Of a stretch of DNA of 32,000 bases, positions 63-5,079 are shown piece by piece; position 1 is the stretch's first letter; every line of letters starts with the position of its first letter. The notes beneath the pieces are model-generated. The model saw only the letters and a list, made by a program, of their open reading frames with translations. It searched no databases and was not told where the DNA came from. A program made the position numbers and the translations under genes. Source of the DNA: Synechocystis sp. PCC 6803 substr. PCC-P (GTDB lineage Bacteria; Cyanobacteriota; Cyanobacteriia; Cyanobacteriales; Microcystaceae); the NCBI RefSeq assembly GCF_000284455.1, contig NC_017039.1:1020001-1052000 (forward strand), read 5' to 3'.

Positions 63-1016
63 ATGACCATTGATAACATCCGTCTTAGAAACGAATTTAT
101 TAACACCGAAGTTATTACCCGCAGCAGCGGCAAAAAACTGGGGGTAGTCAAAGAAGTGCTAGTCGATGTCGATCAGCGAGAAATTGTCGCCCTGGGACTG
201 CGGGACAACTTTTTGTCTTTAACCGGGATGCCCCAATATCTTTACCTGAACAGTATTGTCCAAACCGGGGACGTGGTCTTAGTAGAAAACGATGATGTTT
301 TTGAATTGGTGGAAGTGGACCTCTATTCCCCTCTGGTCAATAGCGAAGTGGTTACTGAAACGGGAGAACCCCTGGGTAGGGTAAGGGATTTTCAGTTTGA
401 CCTCGCCACTGGCAAAGTTTCCTCCATTATCATCGCTTCCTTGGGATTACCCCAAATTCCTGACCAACTTATCAGCACCTACGAGCTTTCCATTGACGAG
501 GTGGTGAGCAGTGGTCCCAACCGTTTGATCGTTTTTGAAGGAGCAGAGGAAAGATTAAATCAACTCAGTGTGGGATTACTGGAACGCCTTGGCATTGGCC
601 GTCCTTCTTGGGAACGGATGGAAGAGGATTTGTATTATCCCCCCACTACCCGCCCTGAAAATCAATTGGGCAGTGGCATCCCCGTGCGGCCACCGGTACA
701 AGTCCGTCAACCGGAGCCCGTGTTGGAAGAGCGTTGGAACGAGGACGATTGGCAAGATACCCGCCCTGCGCCGCCCCCTCGTCGGGAAGTGGCCCCTCTG
801 CGTTATCCAGAGCCGGAATATGAAGATGATTATGAAGTGGATAATTGGGGGGAAGCGTCTTCCCGTTCTTCTGCTCCAGAACCGGATTATGATTATGAAG
901 ATGGAGTGGCTGGCGATGTCTGGGACGACGATGAGGCCCCTGCTCCCTACAGCCCTCCCCGGGTGAATATTCCGGAAACCCGCCGGGAAAAAATGCCTGA
1001 ATATTATGAAGAATAG
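63..1016 (+). CDS. PRC-barrel domain protein with a long acidic, Pro/Tyr-rich C-terminal tail
   Basis: 317-aa ATG ORF. It has two N-terminal PRC-barrel-like segments (GKKLGVVKEVLVDVDQREIVAL and GEPLGRVRDFQFDLATGKVSSIII). From about residue 185 it becomes low-complexity P/E/D/Y sequence (PEPEYEDDYE, PEPDYDYEDG). The nested ORF 568..966 is a frame shadow. Confidence 0.75.
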   Translation: MTIDNIRLRNEFINTEVITRSSGKKLGVVKEVLVDVDQREIVALGLRDNFLSLTGMPQYLYLNSIVQTGDVVLVENDDVFELVEVDLYSPLVNSEVVTETGEPLGRVRDFQFDLATGKVSSIIIASLGLPQIPDQLISTYELSIDEVVSSGPNRLIVFEGAEERLNQLSVGLLERLGIGRPSWERMEEDLYYPPTTRPENQLGSGIPVRPPVQVRQPEPVLEERWNEDDWQDTRPAPPPRREVAPLRYPEPEYEDDYEVDNWGEASSRSSAPEPDYDYEDGVAGDVWDDDEAPAPYSPPRVNIPETRREKMPEYYEE

Positions 1017-1066
1017 TCTCTGATTTAACTAGTCTTGCGCCTTTGTTCGGTTATTCGTATTGTAAG

Positions 1067-1289
1067 TAACGTGAGTTCGGGATAAGAAAGATGACTGACA
1101 ATAGGCTACAAGCTTTACAGGTCAATACATTCGGGAATGACATCAGACTCGTGATTTGTGTTTTTGCATCCTCACAAGTGATTTTTTTGAAGTCCTGAAG
1201 CCCCAAATCCCCCAGTGTACTTGGCGAAAAAACCTCCATTGCAGTCAGAGCAATACTTCTAAGGATCGGCTTAACCCGAACTCACGTTA
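1067..1289 (-). mobile_element. MITE-like non-autonomous element, copy A (inverted relative to copy B)
   Basis: 223 nt bounded by TAACGTGAGTTCGGGATAAG at the left end and CTTAACCCGAACTCACGTTA at the right end. That is a 15-nt perfect terminal inverted repeat, or 20 nt with one mismatch. TA is present at both junctions. Its reverse complement aligns end to end with 2308-2531. It has no transposase-sized ORF. Confidence 0.7.
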
Positions 1290-1327
1290 AATATTAACCC
1301 CAGCGTCTTTGCACTCGAACGACTACA

Positions 1328-2263
1328 TTGACTCTCACCCTCTGGAAGCGTTTTCAATCCTCCGCCTCTAACCCTTTAATTTCACCCTGTGACCCTACCG
1401 AGCTCGATATCCTTGCACGCACAACCCTTCTTTCTCCCTGGCAGTTCTACCGCTACGTCTGCAACATTTGCCAGCAAAATGGGCATGAGCGTTTGTATTT
1501 CGGTCATTTGCCTTGTATTTTCTGTGATTATTTGCCAGAACCACTACTTCTTGCCTTTTTTGATCGCTTAGCAGAGAGTGTAGGAAGATCACCGCAGCCC
1601 TTCCCAAAAACAACTCTCCACCTTCAGAGTCTGCAAGGTACTCTGGAACTTCGCATCAGCCATGCTGGAAGTGGAATGATTGGACAGGTAGTTAGGCTTG
1701 ACATAACATACCGGGAGAAGACGCACTCCTGGGCATTTAAAGCCTTTTTCGAACCGGATTTCGTCTGGCAACATGGCGTTTGGTCCGAGATACCAGTAGG
1801 AATATATTTGCGATCCCAGCATGTCACCCGTGACGTAGCGCAGTTCCATGCCGCTGGACTCACCTGGATGCTGTGTGAATGGATCGAACCGGATGATTGT
1901 CCTAAAACTCGCCCTGGACGCTCCTATGATAGTCTAGCTCAACAGCAGCAACTCACACCCCTTAATCCTCTCAACTATGCCAACTACAGTCGCCATGGCA
2001 TTCGCCTTGATCTCGGTGGCATTCAAAAAATCTACTGGGGACGAAGAATTCGCGATTTTGCTTACACGCTGGTTTTCTATCACAGGCGAGTCCATCGGGA
2101 AGGATGGCGCTTTCTCAGTCCCTATCTTAATTGCTGGACTCTCCGCTACCTTCTGGCAAGGGTGAAATGGTTGCTGTTTCTAAGAAGACCAACGTGCGCA
2201 TTTGAACAAAAAGTTACAGTTTCGGACGAAAAGCCTTCAAGGCAAGGGCCTCAAGATTCTTGA
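1328..2263 (+). CDS. Orphan hypothetical protein, possibly a Cys4 zinc ribbon plus a minimal protein-kinase-like core
   Basis: 311-aa ORF, open from 1298. The only plausible start is TTG at 1328, and the first in-frame ATG is at codon 116. It is the sole ORF between the two MITE copies. The motifs CNIC-x14-CIFC, GSGMIGQV, AFK, LDLGGIQ and RDFA were seen by eye. I recognised no family. Confidence 0.5.
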   Translation: MTLTLWKRFQSSASNPLISPCDPTELDILARTTLLSPWQFYRYVCNICQQNGHERLYFGHLPCIFCDYLPEPLLLAFFDRLAESVGRSPQPFPKTTLHLQSLQGTLELRISHAGSGMIGQVVRLDITYREKTHSWAFKAFFEPDFVWQHGVWSEIPVGIYLRSQHVTRDVAQFHAAGLTWMLCEWIEPDDCPKTRPGRSYDSLAQQQQLTPLNPLNYANYSRHGIRLDLGGIQKIYWGRRIRDFAYTLVFYHRRVHREGWRFLSPYLNCWTLRYLLARVKWLLFLRRPTCAFEQKVTVSDEKPSRQGPQDS

Positions 2264-2307
2264 AGTGGAGCATGGCTTAGTATTCGCAACGGAAAAATTT
2301 TGGTAGT

Positions 2308-2531
2308 TAACGCGAGTTCGGGTTAAGCCGATCCTTAGAAGTATTGCTCTGACTGCAATGGAGGCTTTTTCGCCAGCTACACTGGGGGATTTGGGGCTTC
2401 AGGACTTCAAAAAAATCACTTGTGAGGATGAAAAAACAGAAATCATGAGTCTGATGTCATTGCCGAATGTATTGATCTATAAAGCTTTTAGCCCATTGTT
2501 CAGTCCTCTTTCTTATCTCGAACTCACGTTA
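2308..2531 (+). mobile_element. MITE-like non-autonomous element, copy B
   Basis: 224 nt bounded by TAACGCGAGTTCGGGTTAAG and CTTATCTCGAACTCACGTTA. By hand alignment it differs from the reverse complement of 1067-1289 by about 14 substitutions and one 1-nt indel. It ends 1 nt before the pcrA stop codon, which occupies 2533-2535 on the minus strand. Confidence 0.7.
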
Positions 2532-2532
2532 G

Positions 2533-4908
2533 TCAAAGGCGGCGTAGAGGGGCGAAACTGGGGTCAATAATTTTCACACCAATGCCGGGAAATTTGATGG
2601 CCAAATTAGCTTTATGGCCTTTGCCTAAAATGTGGGTCACAGTGCCTTCTCCAAAATTGTTGTGCATTACCCGATCGCCAACATTCCAGATTAGGTCTTT
2701 AGCCGGTTGAGTGGACTGGGAACCAGTTTTTTTTCGGGCTTGTTTTTGGGCAATGGAAGGTCCCTTGGGATCGGCGGCAGGAGCATTGCGACCAGTTCTA
2801 CGACCAGTTGAGCCATCGGCCAATAAATCCGGTGGTAATTCCTGGAGAAATTGGGACGGTATTTTGGTTTCTAAAGAACCCCAGATGTAACGCATGCGAG
2901 CATGGGTCAAAAAGAGATTTTCCTGGGCTCTGGTAATGCCCACGTAACATAAACGGCGTTCCTCTTCTAGATCCAAAGGATCATTTAAACTGCGGGCGTG
3001 GGGGCAAGTGCCCTGCTCCAACCCCACTAAGAAGACCACTGGAAATTCCAGGCCCTTAGCAGAGTGGAGAGTCATGAGGGACACTTCGTCTCCGGATTCC
3101 TCCAGGTCATCAAGGTCGGAAGTGAGGGATGCTGAAGCCAAAAAATCCACTAGGCTAGGGTCTTCACTTTCTGCTTCAAACTGTCGCACTGCATTGTCCA
3201 ATTCCCCCAGGTTGGCCAGGCGATTATCCGCTTCTTCGGTGCCTTTTTGCTTTAAGTCGTCCACATAATTGGATTTTTCCAACACTAAGCTGAGGGCTTC
3301 CGACGCAGAAAGCTCACCAATTTGGCTTTGGATTTCCTGGAGCATGCGGGCAAATTGCAGGGTTTTTTTACCTGATCGCCCGGCCAGAGTATTCACCGAA
3401 GTTTCGTCGGTAATAATTTCCCACAGGGGAATGTCCAATTCCTTAGAGGCATTAACAAAACCTTCAATGGTGGATTTACCGATGCCCCGCCGGGGAGTAT
3501 TGATGATACGCAACAAGCTGACCGTATCCGCCGGATTAACTAACACCCGGAGATAGGCAATGGCATCTTTAATTTCCTGGCGATCGTAGAAGCGAAAACC
3601 ACCGACAATATTGTAGCGAATATTATTATTTAATAGCTGTTCTTCAAAGGCCCGGGATTGGGCATTGGTGCGATATAAAATAGCAAAATCACCAAAATTT
3701 AATTCTGGGTTATTTTTCCTTAAGCTCAGAATTTTATTAATCACAAAACGGGACTCATCCCTTTCATCATCCGCCTGGTAAAGGATAATATCATCTCCGC
3801 CACTCCGGGTAGCCTTGAGGATCTTGTCAATCCGTTGGCTATTATGTTCAATTAAATGGTTAGCCGCTTGGAGGATATTTTCCCGAGAACGGTAATTTTC
3901 CTCTAGTTTGACCATGGTGGTCGTTTCCCCATCCAACAGGCGATCGCCAAAATCCTCTTGGAAATTGAGCAGGATGGTAAAGTCTGCCATGCGGAAACTG
4001 TAAATAGATTGGTCTGCATCCCCCACCACAAAAGTGGAACGCCCCCGCCAATCCCACTCCGACTGCCGTTCTTCCCCATTGGTGCTCAGCAGACGAATTA
4101 AATCATATTGGATGCGATTAGTGTCTTGGTATTCATCCACCAAAATATGGTTAAATTTTCGGTGCCAGTAGCCTAAAACTGATTCATTTTGTTGAAATAA
4201 ACGGGTAGGGATGAGAATTAAATCATCAAAATCTAGAGCGTTATTAGCGGCCAATTGATTTTGGTAAGCTTGGTAAACTTCCGCAATGACCCTACCTTTA
4301 TAACTGGGATTTTCCCTTAGATAGGTCTCCGGTGATTGCCCGAGGTTTTTGGCATTACTGACCTGGTAGCGAATACTCTTAGGATTGAACTGTTTTTCGT
4401 CCAAATCCATATCCTTAGTGACAATGGTCTTAAACAAACTTTGCACGTCACTTTCATCAAAAATGGAAAACTGTTTTGTCCAACGGCGGCCACTGCTGTC
4501 CTGATATTTATCAATGTCGTAGCGGAGAATACGAGAACATAGACTGTGGAAAGTGCCAATCCAGAGGGGTTTCGTAACTGTTTTGTACACCCTGGAAAGC
4601 AACTGTTTTTGTTCATATTTCCCCAACAATTCCCACCGTTGGCTAAATTCCTGTTGGGCCCAGGCTTGGGCAAAAATCTTTTCCAAACGTTCCTTCATTT
4701 CCTTGGCGGCTTTATTGGTAAAGGTTACCGCCAGGATATTTTCCGGATTGATGCGATGCTGACGAATTAGATGGGCAATGCGGTAGGTTAGTGCCCTAGT
4801 TTTCCCTGAGCCGGCCCCGGCCACCACCAAAAGAGGGCCACAAAAATGCTCCACCGCCCGCCGTTGGGAAGGATTGAGGTGGGCAAGGTAGTCGGGGACA
4901 ACAGTCAT
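2533..4908 (-). CDS. pcrA: UvrD/PcrA-type ATP-dependent DNA helicase (superfamily 1A)
   Basis: Walker A AGAGSGKT. Helicase motifs VTFTNKAA, ILVDEYQDTN, VGDADQSIYSFR, LEENYRS, YRTN, LMTLHSAKGLEFPVVF and YVGITRA. The C-terminal Tudor-like tail is GDRVMHNNFGEGTV. The track ORF begins at TTG 4938. I prefer ATG 4908 (MTVVPDYL), but the start is uncertain. Confidence 0.9.
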   Translation of the reverse strand: MTVVPDYLAHLNPSQRRAVEHFCGPLLVVAGAGSGKTRALTYRIAHLIRQHRINPENILAVTFTNKAAKEMKERLEKIFAQAWAQQEFSQRWELLGKYEQKQLLSRVYKTVTKPLWIGTFHSLCSRILRYDIDKYQDSSGRRWTKQFSIFDESDVQSLFKTIVTKDMDLDEKQFNPKSIRYQVSNAKNLGQSPETYLRENPSYKGRVIAEVYQAYQNQLAANNALDFDDLILIPTRLFQQNESVLGYWHRKFNHILVDEYQDTNRIQYDLIRLLSTNGEERQSEWDWRGRSTFVVGDADQSIYSFRMADFTILLNFQEDFGDRLLDGETTTMVKLEENYRSRENILQAANHLIEHNSQRIDKILKATRSGGDDIILYQADDERDESRFVINKILSLRKNNPELNFGDFAILYRTNAQSRAFEEQLLNNNIRYNIVGGFRFYDRQEIKDAIAYLRVLVNPADTVSLLRIINTPRRGIGKSTIEGFVNASKELDIPLWEIITDETSVNTLAGRSGKKTLQFARMLQEIQSQIGELSASEALSLVLEKSNYVDDLKQKGTEEADNRLANLGELDNAVRQFEAESEDPSLVDFLASASLTSDLDDLEESGDEVSLMTLHSAKGLEFPVVFLVGLEQGTCPHARSLNDPLDLEEERRLCYVGITRAQENLFLTHARMRYIWGSLETKIPSQFLQELPPDLLADGSTGRRTGRNAPAADPKGPSIAQKQARKKTGSQSTQPAKDLIWNVGDRVMHNNFGEGTVTHILGKGHKANLAIKFPGIGVKIIDPSFAPLRRL

Positions 4909-5079
4909 GGGCACAGTAACAGTAGGCTTAAGGTTCAATCAACAATTAAGTTTAGCAATCAACCAAGGGAAATTATTTTTTCGCTCTTTTCCGTTTCCAT
5001 GGCAATCGCCCTTCGTTGAGAGATCTACAACCACCATTTATTAACCTGAACTAAATATTGCTTAATGATTTTGAGGGGG

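Follow-up and report, generated by a model that had tools for sequence, protein, structure and literature searches.

Two IS982-derived MITEs around slr1222 in Synechocystis: probable independent insertions followed by recombination between the inverted copies

Between slr1220 and the helicase gene pcrA, the genome of Synechocystis sp. PCC 6803 carries a single gene, slr1222, bracketed by two inverted copies of a repeat of about 223 nt, and the question raised by this locus is how such an arrangement came about. A preliminary description, made from the letters of the 32-kb window of the PCC 6803 genome analysed here (all coordinates below are positions within that window), had seen in it a block resembling a composite transposon that could move the enclosed gene as a unit. 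We consider a different history to be probable, namely that two IS982-type miniature inverted-repeat transposable elements (MITEs) inserted independently around a resident gene, and that host recombination later acted on the pair. Exact-protein look-ups identified the genes concerned as slr1220, slr1222 and pcrA of Synechocystis sp. PCC 6803, and the features of the locus, including the terminal inverted repeats (TIRs) of the units, are as follows.

63..1016, + strand: slr1220, PRC-barrel protein (Pfam PF05239, E = 2.5e-20); left flank, transcribed toward the block.
1063..1068: TAAGTA, left copy of the putative target duplication of the left unit, from the sequence and from comparison of the flanks across strains.
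1067..1289, + strand: left MITE unit, 223 nt, with its 'A' end toward slr1220 and its 'B' end toward slr1222; inverted copy of 2308-2531.
1067..1086, + strand: outer TIR of the left unit, TAACGTGAGTTCGGGATAAG, equal to the consensus IS982-type end across phyla.
1069-1287: left element proper by the ISfinder convention, ACG...CGT.
1270..1289, - strand: inner TIR of the left unit, CTTAACCCGAACTCACGTTA, 95% complementary to 1067-1086.
1288..1293: TAAATA, right copy of the putative target duplication of the left unit, a 5/6 match to TAAGTA.
1290..2307: central segment, in the opposite orientation in CP054306.1 between the same two units and outer flanks.
1328..2263, + strand: slr1222, 311 aa; no Pfam or NCBIfam family, weak protein-kinase-like (RIO-like) fold.
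2304..2309: TAGTTA, left copy of the target duplication of the right unit, from comparison of empty and filled sites.
2308..2531, - strand: right MITE unit, 224 nt, with its B end toward slr1222 and its A end abutting pcrA; element proper 2310-2529.
2530..2535: right copy of the target duplication of the right unit, TAGTCA in PCC 6803 and TAGTTA in B12 and CP054306.1.
2533..4938, - strand: pcrA/uvrD helicase (Pfam UvrD-helicase, E = 2.6e-95); right flank, transcribed toward the block.

A repeat search recovered two pairs of inverted arms, 1098-1293/2304-2499 (196 nt, 93% identity) and 1067-1098/2500-2531 (32 nt, 94%), which constitute a single inverted repeat interrupted by one 1-nt indel, and it found no further repeats of at least 30 nt in the 32-kb window. 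When aligned with MAFFT, the left and right units show 15 differences, exactly the 14 substitutions and one indel that had been estimated by hand in the preliminary description. That account also held with respect to the TIRs that it gave to each unit, which are 20 nt long, and the 15-mer TAACGTGAGTTCGGG, searched with up to three mismatches, occurs four times in the window, in each case at one of the four unit ends, against an expectation of 0.46. The sizes of 223 and 224 nt fall in the MITE range, and neither unit encodes a transposase, as had been stated: their open reading frames (ORFs) extend over only 35–70 aa, those of 62 and 70 aa have no family match, and a tblastn search of the units with IS982 transposases gave no match. 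Exactly one long ORF lies between the units, that of slr1222, which is read from a TTG start; the block fills the gap between slr1220 on the + strand and pcrA on the - strand, which converge upon it, again in agreement with the earlier account.

The family of the units was revealed by their ends. A one-genome-per-species collection of 596 Gb was scanned permissively with the pattern TAACGNGAGTTCGNGNTA, for whose 15 specified bases about 1,100 chance matches are expected, and the scan yielded at least 120 loci in the Bacteroidota, Acidobacteriota, Chloroflexota, Cyanobacteria and other phyla, with no Synechocystis record among the matches listed. At 115 ends the three free positions proved to be T (85%), G (78%) and A (78%), the next two bases were A (90%) and G (66%), and BLAST lengthened many of the end matches to 20–23 identical bases. 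Since the free positions are biased and the next two bases conserved, these matches are not due to chance, and TAACGTGAGTTCGGGATAAG is the consensus of a conserved element end. The 1,050-bp contig L026 is bounded by both ends and encodes a 303-aa protein that matches the IS982 transposase family NCBIfam NF033520 with E = 1.8e-72, the cyanobacterial L079 (987 bp) has the same ends and a transposase matching NF033520 with E = 1.1e-78, and the same 20-nt ends also bound IS982 elements in L112, L122 and others.

Fifty complete elements with these ends were sampled, ten of them about 1 kb long and 40 MITE-sized (65–642 bp). Two features of the sample deserve mention in their own right. Distant phyla share the 20-nt IS982-type end nearly base for base, with MITE-sized elements outnumbering full-length ones by 4:1, and elements of about 65–68 bp, barely longer than two TIRs, occur in Pseudanabaena and in a Chloroflexi metagenome-assembled genome (minimal or short examples lie at L031 7237-7304, L082 1552-1618, L084 6438-6504 and L063 2294-2358).

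Inverted repeats of insertion sequences (ISs) of the IS982 family start with AC and carry the conserved pattern AC(N)6T(N)5TT, while the direct repeats given in ISfinder entries range from 0 to 10 bp, ISNsp1 of Nostoc having repeats of 6 bp and IS1187 of Bacteroides repeats of 7 bp (Fayad, Kallassy Awad and Mahillon 2020, PMC7335449); MITEs go unmentioned in that review of the family. The end sequence ACGTGAGTTCGGGATA fits AC(N)6T(N)5T and has A, not T, at the last consensus position. With the element taken as ACG...CGT, and the expectation derived from randomly paired flanks, perfect direct repeats of 6–7 bp and of the form TA-N2-3-TA flank 24 of the 50 complete elements (17 of 6 bp and seven of 7 bp), against 2.4 expected. 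In their AC-start TIRs, their AC(N)6T(N)5T pattern and their direct repeats of 6–7 bp the Synechocystis units are like such IS982 family members as ISNsp1 and IS1187; they differ from the full-length elements with the same end, which are about 1 kb long and encode a transposase, in measuring only 223 nt and having none. Because no transposase is encoded, the units are classed as IS982-derived MITEs and not as IS982 elements themselves.

An IS982-derived MITE of about 240 bp, MITECca01, has been described in the Cardinium endosymbiont of Oedothorax gibbosus (PMC9769881). It and the Synechocystis unit are both non-autonomous, with IS982-type inverted repeats, no transposase and similar lengths; they differ in that MITECca01 is abundant and occurs alongside its intact parent ISCca4, while the Synechocystis element is represented by three copies found and no parent, and in the phyla of their hosts.

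How the units entered the locus can be followed in related genomes, in which the region between slr1220 and pcrA takes these forms.

PCC 6803, a FACHB strain (L001), CACIAM 05 (L008) and B12 (L146): left unit, slr1222 on the + strand, right unit.
S. salina LEGE 00031 (L144) and LEGE 06083 (L145): left unit, slr1222 on the + strand, no right unit; the slr1222 stop lies 43 nt from pcrA.
CP054306.1 (L140), which we take to be PCC 7338: both units and the outer flanks in place, the 1-kb middle inverted, with slr1222 on the - strand.
GCA_015207645.1 (L141): block gone, with 24–32 nt of the pcrA-side TIR left.
PCC 6714-type contigs (L136–L139): slr1220 followed by radC, synteny broken, neither unit nor slr1222 present.

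The preliminary description had proposed looking in relatives for empty sites or sites with a single MITE, and both LEGE 00031 and LEGE 06083 provide them, since they lack the right unit and carry a clean site, ttttgg(A/G)AGTTAaggg. The corresponding filled site, in CP054306.1 and B12, is ttttggTAGTTA[ACG..CGT]TAGTTAaggg. Comparison of the empty GG(A/G)AGTTAAGGG with the filled GGTAGTTA[..]TAGTTAAGGG gives a duplication of 5–6 bp, (T)AGTTA, for the right unit; in B12 and CP054306.1 TAGTTA stands at either side of this unit, and in PCC 6803 the two copies read TAGTTA and TAGTCA. The duplicated hexamer includes the stop codon of pcrA (2533-2535, minus strand), and the stop is preserved.

These results bear directly on the assignment that had originally been made. 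The presence of TA at both junctions of each unit had been read as the target signature of IS630/Tc1-mariner-type elements, to which ISY100 belongs. TA is indeed found at all four junctions, but it lies within the longer conserved end or target duplication, and the sequence duplicated is one of 6–7 bp and not TA. IS630-family elements do occur in Synechocystis, and CACIAM 05 carries beside its right unit a different insert, about 100 nt long and bordered by TA at each end, which might be seen as further encouragement for ISY100-type MITEs with a TA target duplication. Such an origin has next to no chance of being correct, given that the termini match those of elements with NF033520 transposases, that direct repeats of 6–7 bp are found throughout the family, and that the observed empty site is 4 nt shorter than a duplication of TA alone would give. 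The original assignment of the units to IS630/Tc1-mariner therefore falls to their IS982-type ends.

That the units are mobile is also apparent from a copy outside the locus. When the 58-aa ORF of the unit was used as a peptide query it matched only the slr1222 locus and a protein of L142, a contig of the Joint Genome Institute (JGI) metagenome 3300048597, in which the element is present complete for a third time, with 94% identity to the left unit. This copy is flanked by the direct repeat TACTTTA and lies in an unrelated context, and the rest of the contig has no match to the window. Together with the polymorphic insertion of the right unit, the third copy and its own duplication bear out the earlier characterisation of the units as MITE-like. 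The known copies thus number three, two at the slr1222 locus and one in L142; no match to the unit was found among PLSDB plasmids and no copy in a scan of a viral collection. The units are mobile, and in the DNA covered, which included the rest of the 32-kb window, the family of the 223-nt unit appears to be rare. A metagenome scan with an internal 21-mer gave a sole match, in L143, which was rejected as a chance match of 23 nt inside a coding gene. We found no published account of the repeat: a text search with the terminal sequence returned unrelated primers only, and literature on Synechocystis in combination with MITEs and with IS982 contained nothing on it.

The surroundings of the third copy provide a separate observation. 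Judged by eye, the flanks in L142 (1-161 and 385-1060) seem to belong to a decayed IS630-like transposase gene, with motifs resembling IDEA.F, DNAPIH and YSPDLN, which would mean a nested insertion; NCBIfam scans of the short ORFs called in L142 gave no match.

On the explanation that we favour, the two units, which are 223-nt non-autonomous derivatives of an IS982-family IS, would have inserted separately into TA-N2-TA targets, and slr1222 would already have been resident in the convergent gap between slr1220 and pcrA before they arrived. The right unit would be the later arrival, its target TAGTTA overlapping the pcrA stop codon, with the uninterrupted site persisting in some strains. Once both were in place, the pair would have offered 223-bp inverted homologies to the host recombination machinery, probably by a RecA-type mechanism: crossing-over between the units would have flipped the 1-kb middle in CP054306.1, gene conversion would have homogenised the units in CP054306.1 and B12, and slippage would have removed the whole block from GCA_015207645.1, leaving a TIR stub of 24–32 nt.

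The inversion, the homogenisation and the deletion themselves are shown by the genomes. The block of CP054306.1 matches that of the window on the reverse strand over 1473 nt with 96.3% identity. Left and right units differ at 15 positions in PCC 6803 and 16 in CACIAM 05, whose right units have seven derived states in common, and at only three positions in CP054306.1 and five in B12, where strain-specific derived single-nucleotide polymorphisms are common to both units of each strain. Gene conversion between the inverted copies is the simplest reading of these homogenised units, the alternative being repeated independent insertions into the very same hexamer. Since the units are homogenised in CP054306.1, the point of crossover cannot be located.

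In GCA_015207645.1, whose slr1220 protein is identical to that of CP054306.1, the sequence GTCAT at the junction is common to the left flank and the right unit, and this microhomology, together with the retained TIR stub, indicates a slippage deletion. The possibility that this genome preserves an ancestral empty site was rejected on the same grounds, the 24–32 nt belonging to the outer TIR of the right unit. Inversion, concerted change of repeats and deletion of a block are familiar from RecA-dependent recombination between IS copies in general; here the repeats are very short (223 bp), the inversion takes in one gene, and the deletion used 5 nt of microhomology and not the repeats. As a separate matter, in the PCC 6714-type contigs (L136–L139, 5955-6713) radC, on the opposite strand, takes the place of slr1222 and pcrA immediately after slr1220, and a synteny breakpoint coincides with the convergent gap in which other strains carry the block.

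The occurrence of both orientations among strains invites the suggestion of a programmed switch, in which regulated inversion would turn slr1222 on and off by phase variation. We regard this as very improbable: no recombinase gene is present among the neighbouring genes, the repeats are 223-nt transposon copies and not short recombinase sites, and the segment is flipped in only one of the six genomes that carry the block. Moreover, since the units are inverted copies, slr1222 would retain the same upstream unit and spacer, and would be co-directional with a flanking gene, whichever way the segment lay.

A more serious complication is that the block is young. PCC 6803 and CP054306.1 are 87–90% identical over about 10 kb, as compared with 96.3% over the 1,473-nt block, and, with CP054306.1, LEGE 00031, LEGE 06083 and B12 taken into the comparison, the block (window 963-2300) is 94–99% identical between Synechocystis species, against 83–91% for the flanking genes. 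Synonymous divergence (dS) of slr1220 amounts to 0.54 between PCC 6803 and S. salina and 0.66 between PCC 6803 and CP054306.1, and that of pcrA to 0.55 and 0.49, respectively, whereas the values for slr1222 are 0.10 and 0.07. The same is true of non-coding DNA, with the left unit 96–97% identical between species and the adjoining 50-nt gap 78–94% identical. The low dS of the block relative to its flanks implies that it was exchanged between species long after they split. The boundary of low divergence lies at about 962–1007 in S. salina and at about 1084–1118, within the left unit, in CP054306.1. B12, otherwise nearly identical to PCC 6803, diverges from it over about 2.3 kb, a stretch that takes in the block together with portions of slr1220 and pcrA and looks like an imported recombination tract. 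Over the aligned range 63-4400 the flanks of B12 form a mosaic, 99–100% identical to PCC 6803 at 363-562 and from 2863 onward and 84–93% identical at 563-962 and 2563-2862, and the look-up of this strain called no intact pcrA gene.

Recent movement between species leans toward the composite transposon of the preliminary description, in which an IS982 transposase supplied in trans would act on the outermost TIRs, move both units and slr1222 as one and spread the block among species. The TIRs at both outer ends are intact and correctly inverted, the divergence of CP054306.1 changes within about 20–50 nt of the outer end of the left unit, and the identity and dS contrasts between block and flanks just given speak for such a transposon as well. 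MITE-bounded cassettes are known, among them integron mobilisation units and MITE-flanked integrons in Enterobacter and Acinetobacter (of class 1 in the latter), and the block shares with these, and with compound transposons of the Tn5/Tn10 type, an inverted pair of elements with intact outward ends and a passenger gene. It differs from them in showing neither a duplication around the whole block nor, in the DNA covered, a second locus, and in having a single-unit intermediate and a duplication private to the right unit.

The right unit has a perfect duplication of its own and a matching empty site, a state with the left unit and slr1222 but no right unit exists, and the outer hexamers of the block, TAAGTA and TAGT(C/T)A, disagree in their informative centres, AG and GT. 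In each of the block-carrying genomes the block occupies the same place; the search for it elsewhere that had been suggested turned up one locus only, between slr1220 and pcrA, among the eight genomes seen, and no copy in the PLSDB, metagenome or viral scans. Relatives of slr1222 are found in other cyanobacteria without the units (see below). The boundary of low divergence varies between genomes, and the putative 2.3-kb recombination tract in B12 takes in flanking DNA. We therefore hold mobilisation of the block as a composite transposon to be distinctly unlikely. The variable end points and the B12 tract do not fit transposition to a fixed end, and point instead to the integration of taken-up DNA by homologous recombination, followed by erosion of the flanks that had hitch-hiked; the block would then have spread by natural transformation and homologous recombination.

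The units themselves might have assisted in this process, serving as portable homology arms for transformed DNA, with which the segment could be swapped or flipped across species whose flanks are too diverged to recombine efficiently. The strong contrast in divergence between block and flanks would be accounted for, the more so since the boundary in CP054306.1 falls at or just inside the left unit and the units are far better conserved across species than the adjoining gap. The mosaic flanks of B12 show frequent homologous recombination in the region, and the inversion and gene conversion show that the units do recombine. On the other hand, the block is young also in S. salina and LEGE 06083, where there is no right arm, low divergence in S. 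salina extends about 100 nt beyond the unit, and plain introgression with eroding hitch-hiking flanks gives the same picture with no part played by the MITEs. A role of this kind for the units seems to us unlikely.

Several points weigh against two independent insertions as the explanation of the locus. Synonymous divergence is 5–9 times lower in the block than in either flank, which is not explained by simple vertical inheritance of two old insertions, and the added hypothesis of a recent exchange between species is needed. The flanks of the left unit, TAAGTA and TAAATA, match at only five of six positions and no genome was found with slr1222 and without the left unit; for these two reasons we infer independent insertion of the left unit and do not claim to have shown it. 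The empty right site could in principle result from precise excision instead of ancestral absence, and the inversion in CP054306.1 rests on one assembly, while short-read assembly can mis-orient 1 kb of DNA lying between 223-bp inverted repeats. The internal sequence of the units is unrelated to any of the full-length elements sampled, a search for a parental IS by subterminal similarity gave unconvincing best local scores of 13–15 against a median of 7, and no IS982 transposase was found in about 90 kb of Synechocystis DNA. Synechocystis is also absent from the organisms listed for IS982 matches on plasmids and from those named among the best 120 protein matches.

The gene enclosed by the units had been called an orphan, which it is not. 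There are 36 homologues of slr1222 with 34–73% identity, in Phormidium, Geitlerinema, Coleofasciculus, Moorena, Symploca and others, and a profile search of 1.84 billion representatives gave 16 clusters of the slr1222 family below 1e-30. The five homologue contexts inspected, which adjoin tamB, gdh and ilvC, contain no TIR and no flanking inverted repeat, so that the cargo is found widely without the units, a finding that the preliminary description itself had named as one that would speak against it. Among Synechocystis strains the ratio of non-synonymous to synonymous divergence (dN/dS) of slr1222 is 0.17–0.35; the gene is under purifying selection, and it is translated. According to a 2026 preprint, ribosome profiling of translation initiation sites (TIS-Ribo-seq) supports the TTG start of slr1222, lengthening the old 195-aa model by 116 aa, and the legend to Fig. 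S13A reports upstream small ORFs of 35 aa and 44 aa in the interval from slr1220 to slr1222 (bioRxiv 10.64898/2025.12.20.695498). The preprint states a length of 321 aa for the extended Slr1222, whereas 195 and 116 aa add up to 311 aa, the length of the ORF (10.64898/2025.12.20.695498). Three ORFs in the window correspond in length and location to those named in the preprint.

1091..1198, + strand: upstream ORF (uORF) of 35 aa, wholly within the left unit, matching 'slr1222-uORF1'.
1156..1290, + strand: uORF of 44 aa with a TTG start, in the left unit, matching 'slr1222-uORF2'.
1389-1571: ORF of 60 aa, matching the internal out-of-frame 'IOF(L)' small ORF.

Since the uORFs lie within the left unit, the unit must be transcribed as part of the upstream region of slr1222, and it would form part of the leader of the gene, with two ribosome-occupied uORFs. 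All six Synechocystis genomes with slr1222 also have the left unit. A consensus scan for promoters and terminators gave nothing above the shuffle expectation, with no terminator between slr1222 and the right unit, a search of 900-2700 against Rfam at a permissive threshold gave no match, and the supplements of a comparison of PCC 6714 with PCC 6803 mention none of slr1220, slr1222 and pcrA.

Pairing of its TIRs gives the left unit an RNA fold z-score of -3.9. In the minimum free energy fold of 1067-2531, 213 of the 223 bases of the left unit are paired with the right unit, and the duplex is calculated at -376 kcal/mol; on energy grounds a duplex between the units is possible in a transcript that spans the block, and the stem of about 220 bp foreseen in the preliminary description holds thermodynamically in the predicted fold. 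One may go further and imagine that the MITE pair makes of slr1222 a cassette mobilised by recombination, its units acting as homology arms by which naturally transformed DNA would swap, flip or restore it across species in which ordinary DNA is 10–13% diverged, with the added possibility that double-stranded RNA and RNase III control slr1222 through the duplex of a read-through transcript, in two-unit strains only. If true, the homology-arm role would account for a block 5–9 times younger at synonymous sites than both flanking genes. We mention this extended proposal as a doubtful one.

Slr1222 itself has no match in Pfam or NCBIfam and none in the PDB by sequence profile. In an alignment of the family the motif GxGxxGxV...AxK is invariant, as are further H, N, D and GG positions. 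The AlphaFold model is confident (mean local confidence, pLDDT, 84; predicted template modelling score, pTM, 0.81) and was used in a fold search in which the best PDB matches, although weak, were all protein kinases, with Rio1 at E = 0.012 and template modelling scores of 0.26–0.32, and one distant relative (P0202) carries a fused dual-specificity phosphatase domain. Slr1222 may represent an uncharacterised, atypical kinase-like family that is mostly cyanobacterial, and the modelled fold is offered as a lead only. A decayed IS982 transposase, which would be of similar length, was considered for slr1222 and rejected, as there is no similarity and the family is distinct and conserved.

Mechanistically the locus presents nothing new, in that MITEs, IS982-derived MITEs and repeat-mediated inversion are all established, and it is an instructive yet ordinary case of repeat-driven genome change. 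Its interest lies in part in the reclassification of a repeat in the most-used model cyanobacterium, as IS982-derived and not ISY100/Tc1-like. In addition, seven related genomes form a natural series at one locus, with one unit, two units, a flipped middle, homogenised units and a deletion with a footprint, and the series shows the effect of a 223-bp inverted MITE pair on a gene over evolutionary time. For those who work with Synechocystis there are practical consequences: the leader of slr1222 would be MITE sequence with translated uORFs, the 1-kb segment may be placed in the wrong orientation by short-read assembly, and the slr1222 locus has been exchanged between species. The contrast in dS between block and flanks makes the locus a concrete case in which introgression of an accessory gene can be tested in a naturally competent cyanobacterium.

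Two further observations concern the immediate surroundings of the block. The extra insert of CACIAM 05 (L008 8243-8343, corresponding to about 2305/2306 of the window) adjoins the right unit on its inner edge and comprises some 100 nt. TA borders it left and right (ggTA|tagcgaag...tttgcta|TAgttgacg), and its ends are weakly inverted; the insert resembles a small IS630/Tc1-type MITE, is an element distinct from the 223-nt units, and has no copy in the window or among PLSDB plasmids. The gene slr1220 contains, in its 3' part, an imperfect direct repeat of 37 nt (70%) at 801-837/864-900, which encodes the acidic, proline-rich motif PEPEYEDDYE/PEPDYDYE of the C-terminal tail, the fastest-evolving part of that gene between strains.

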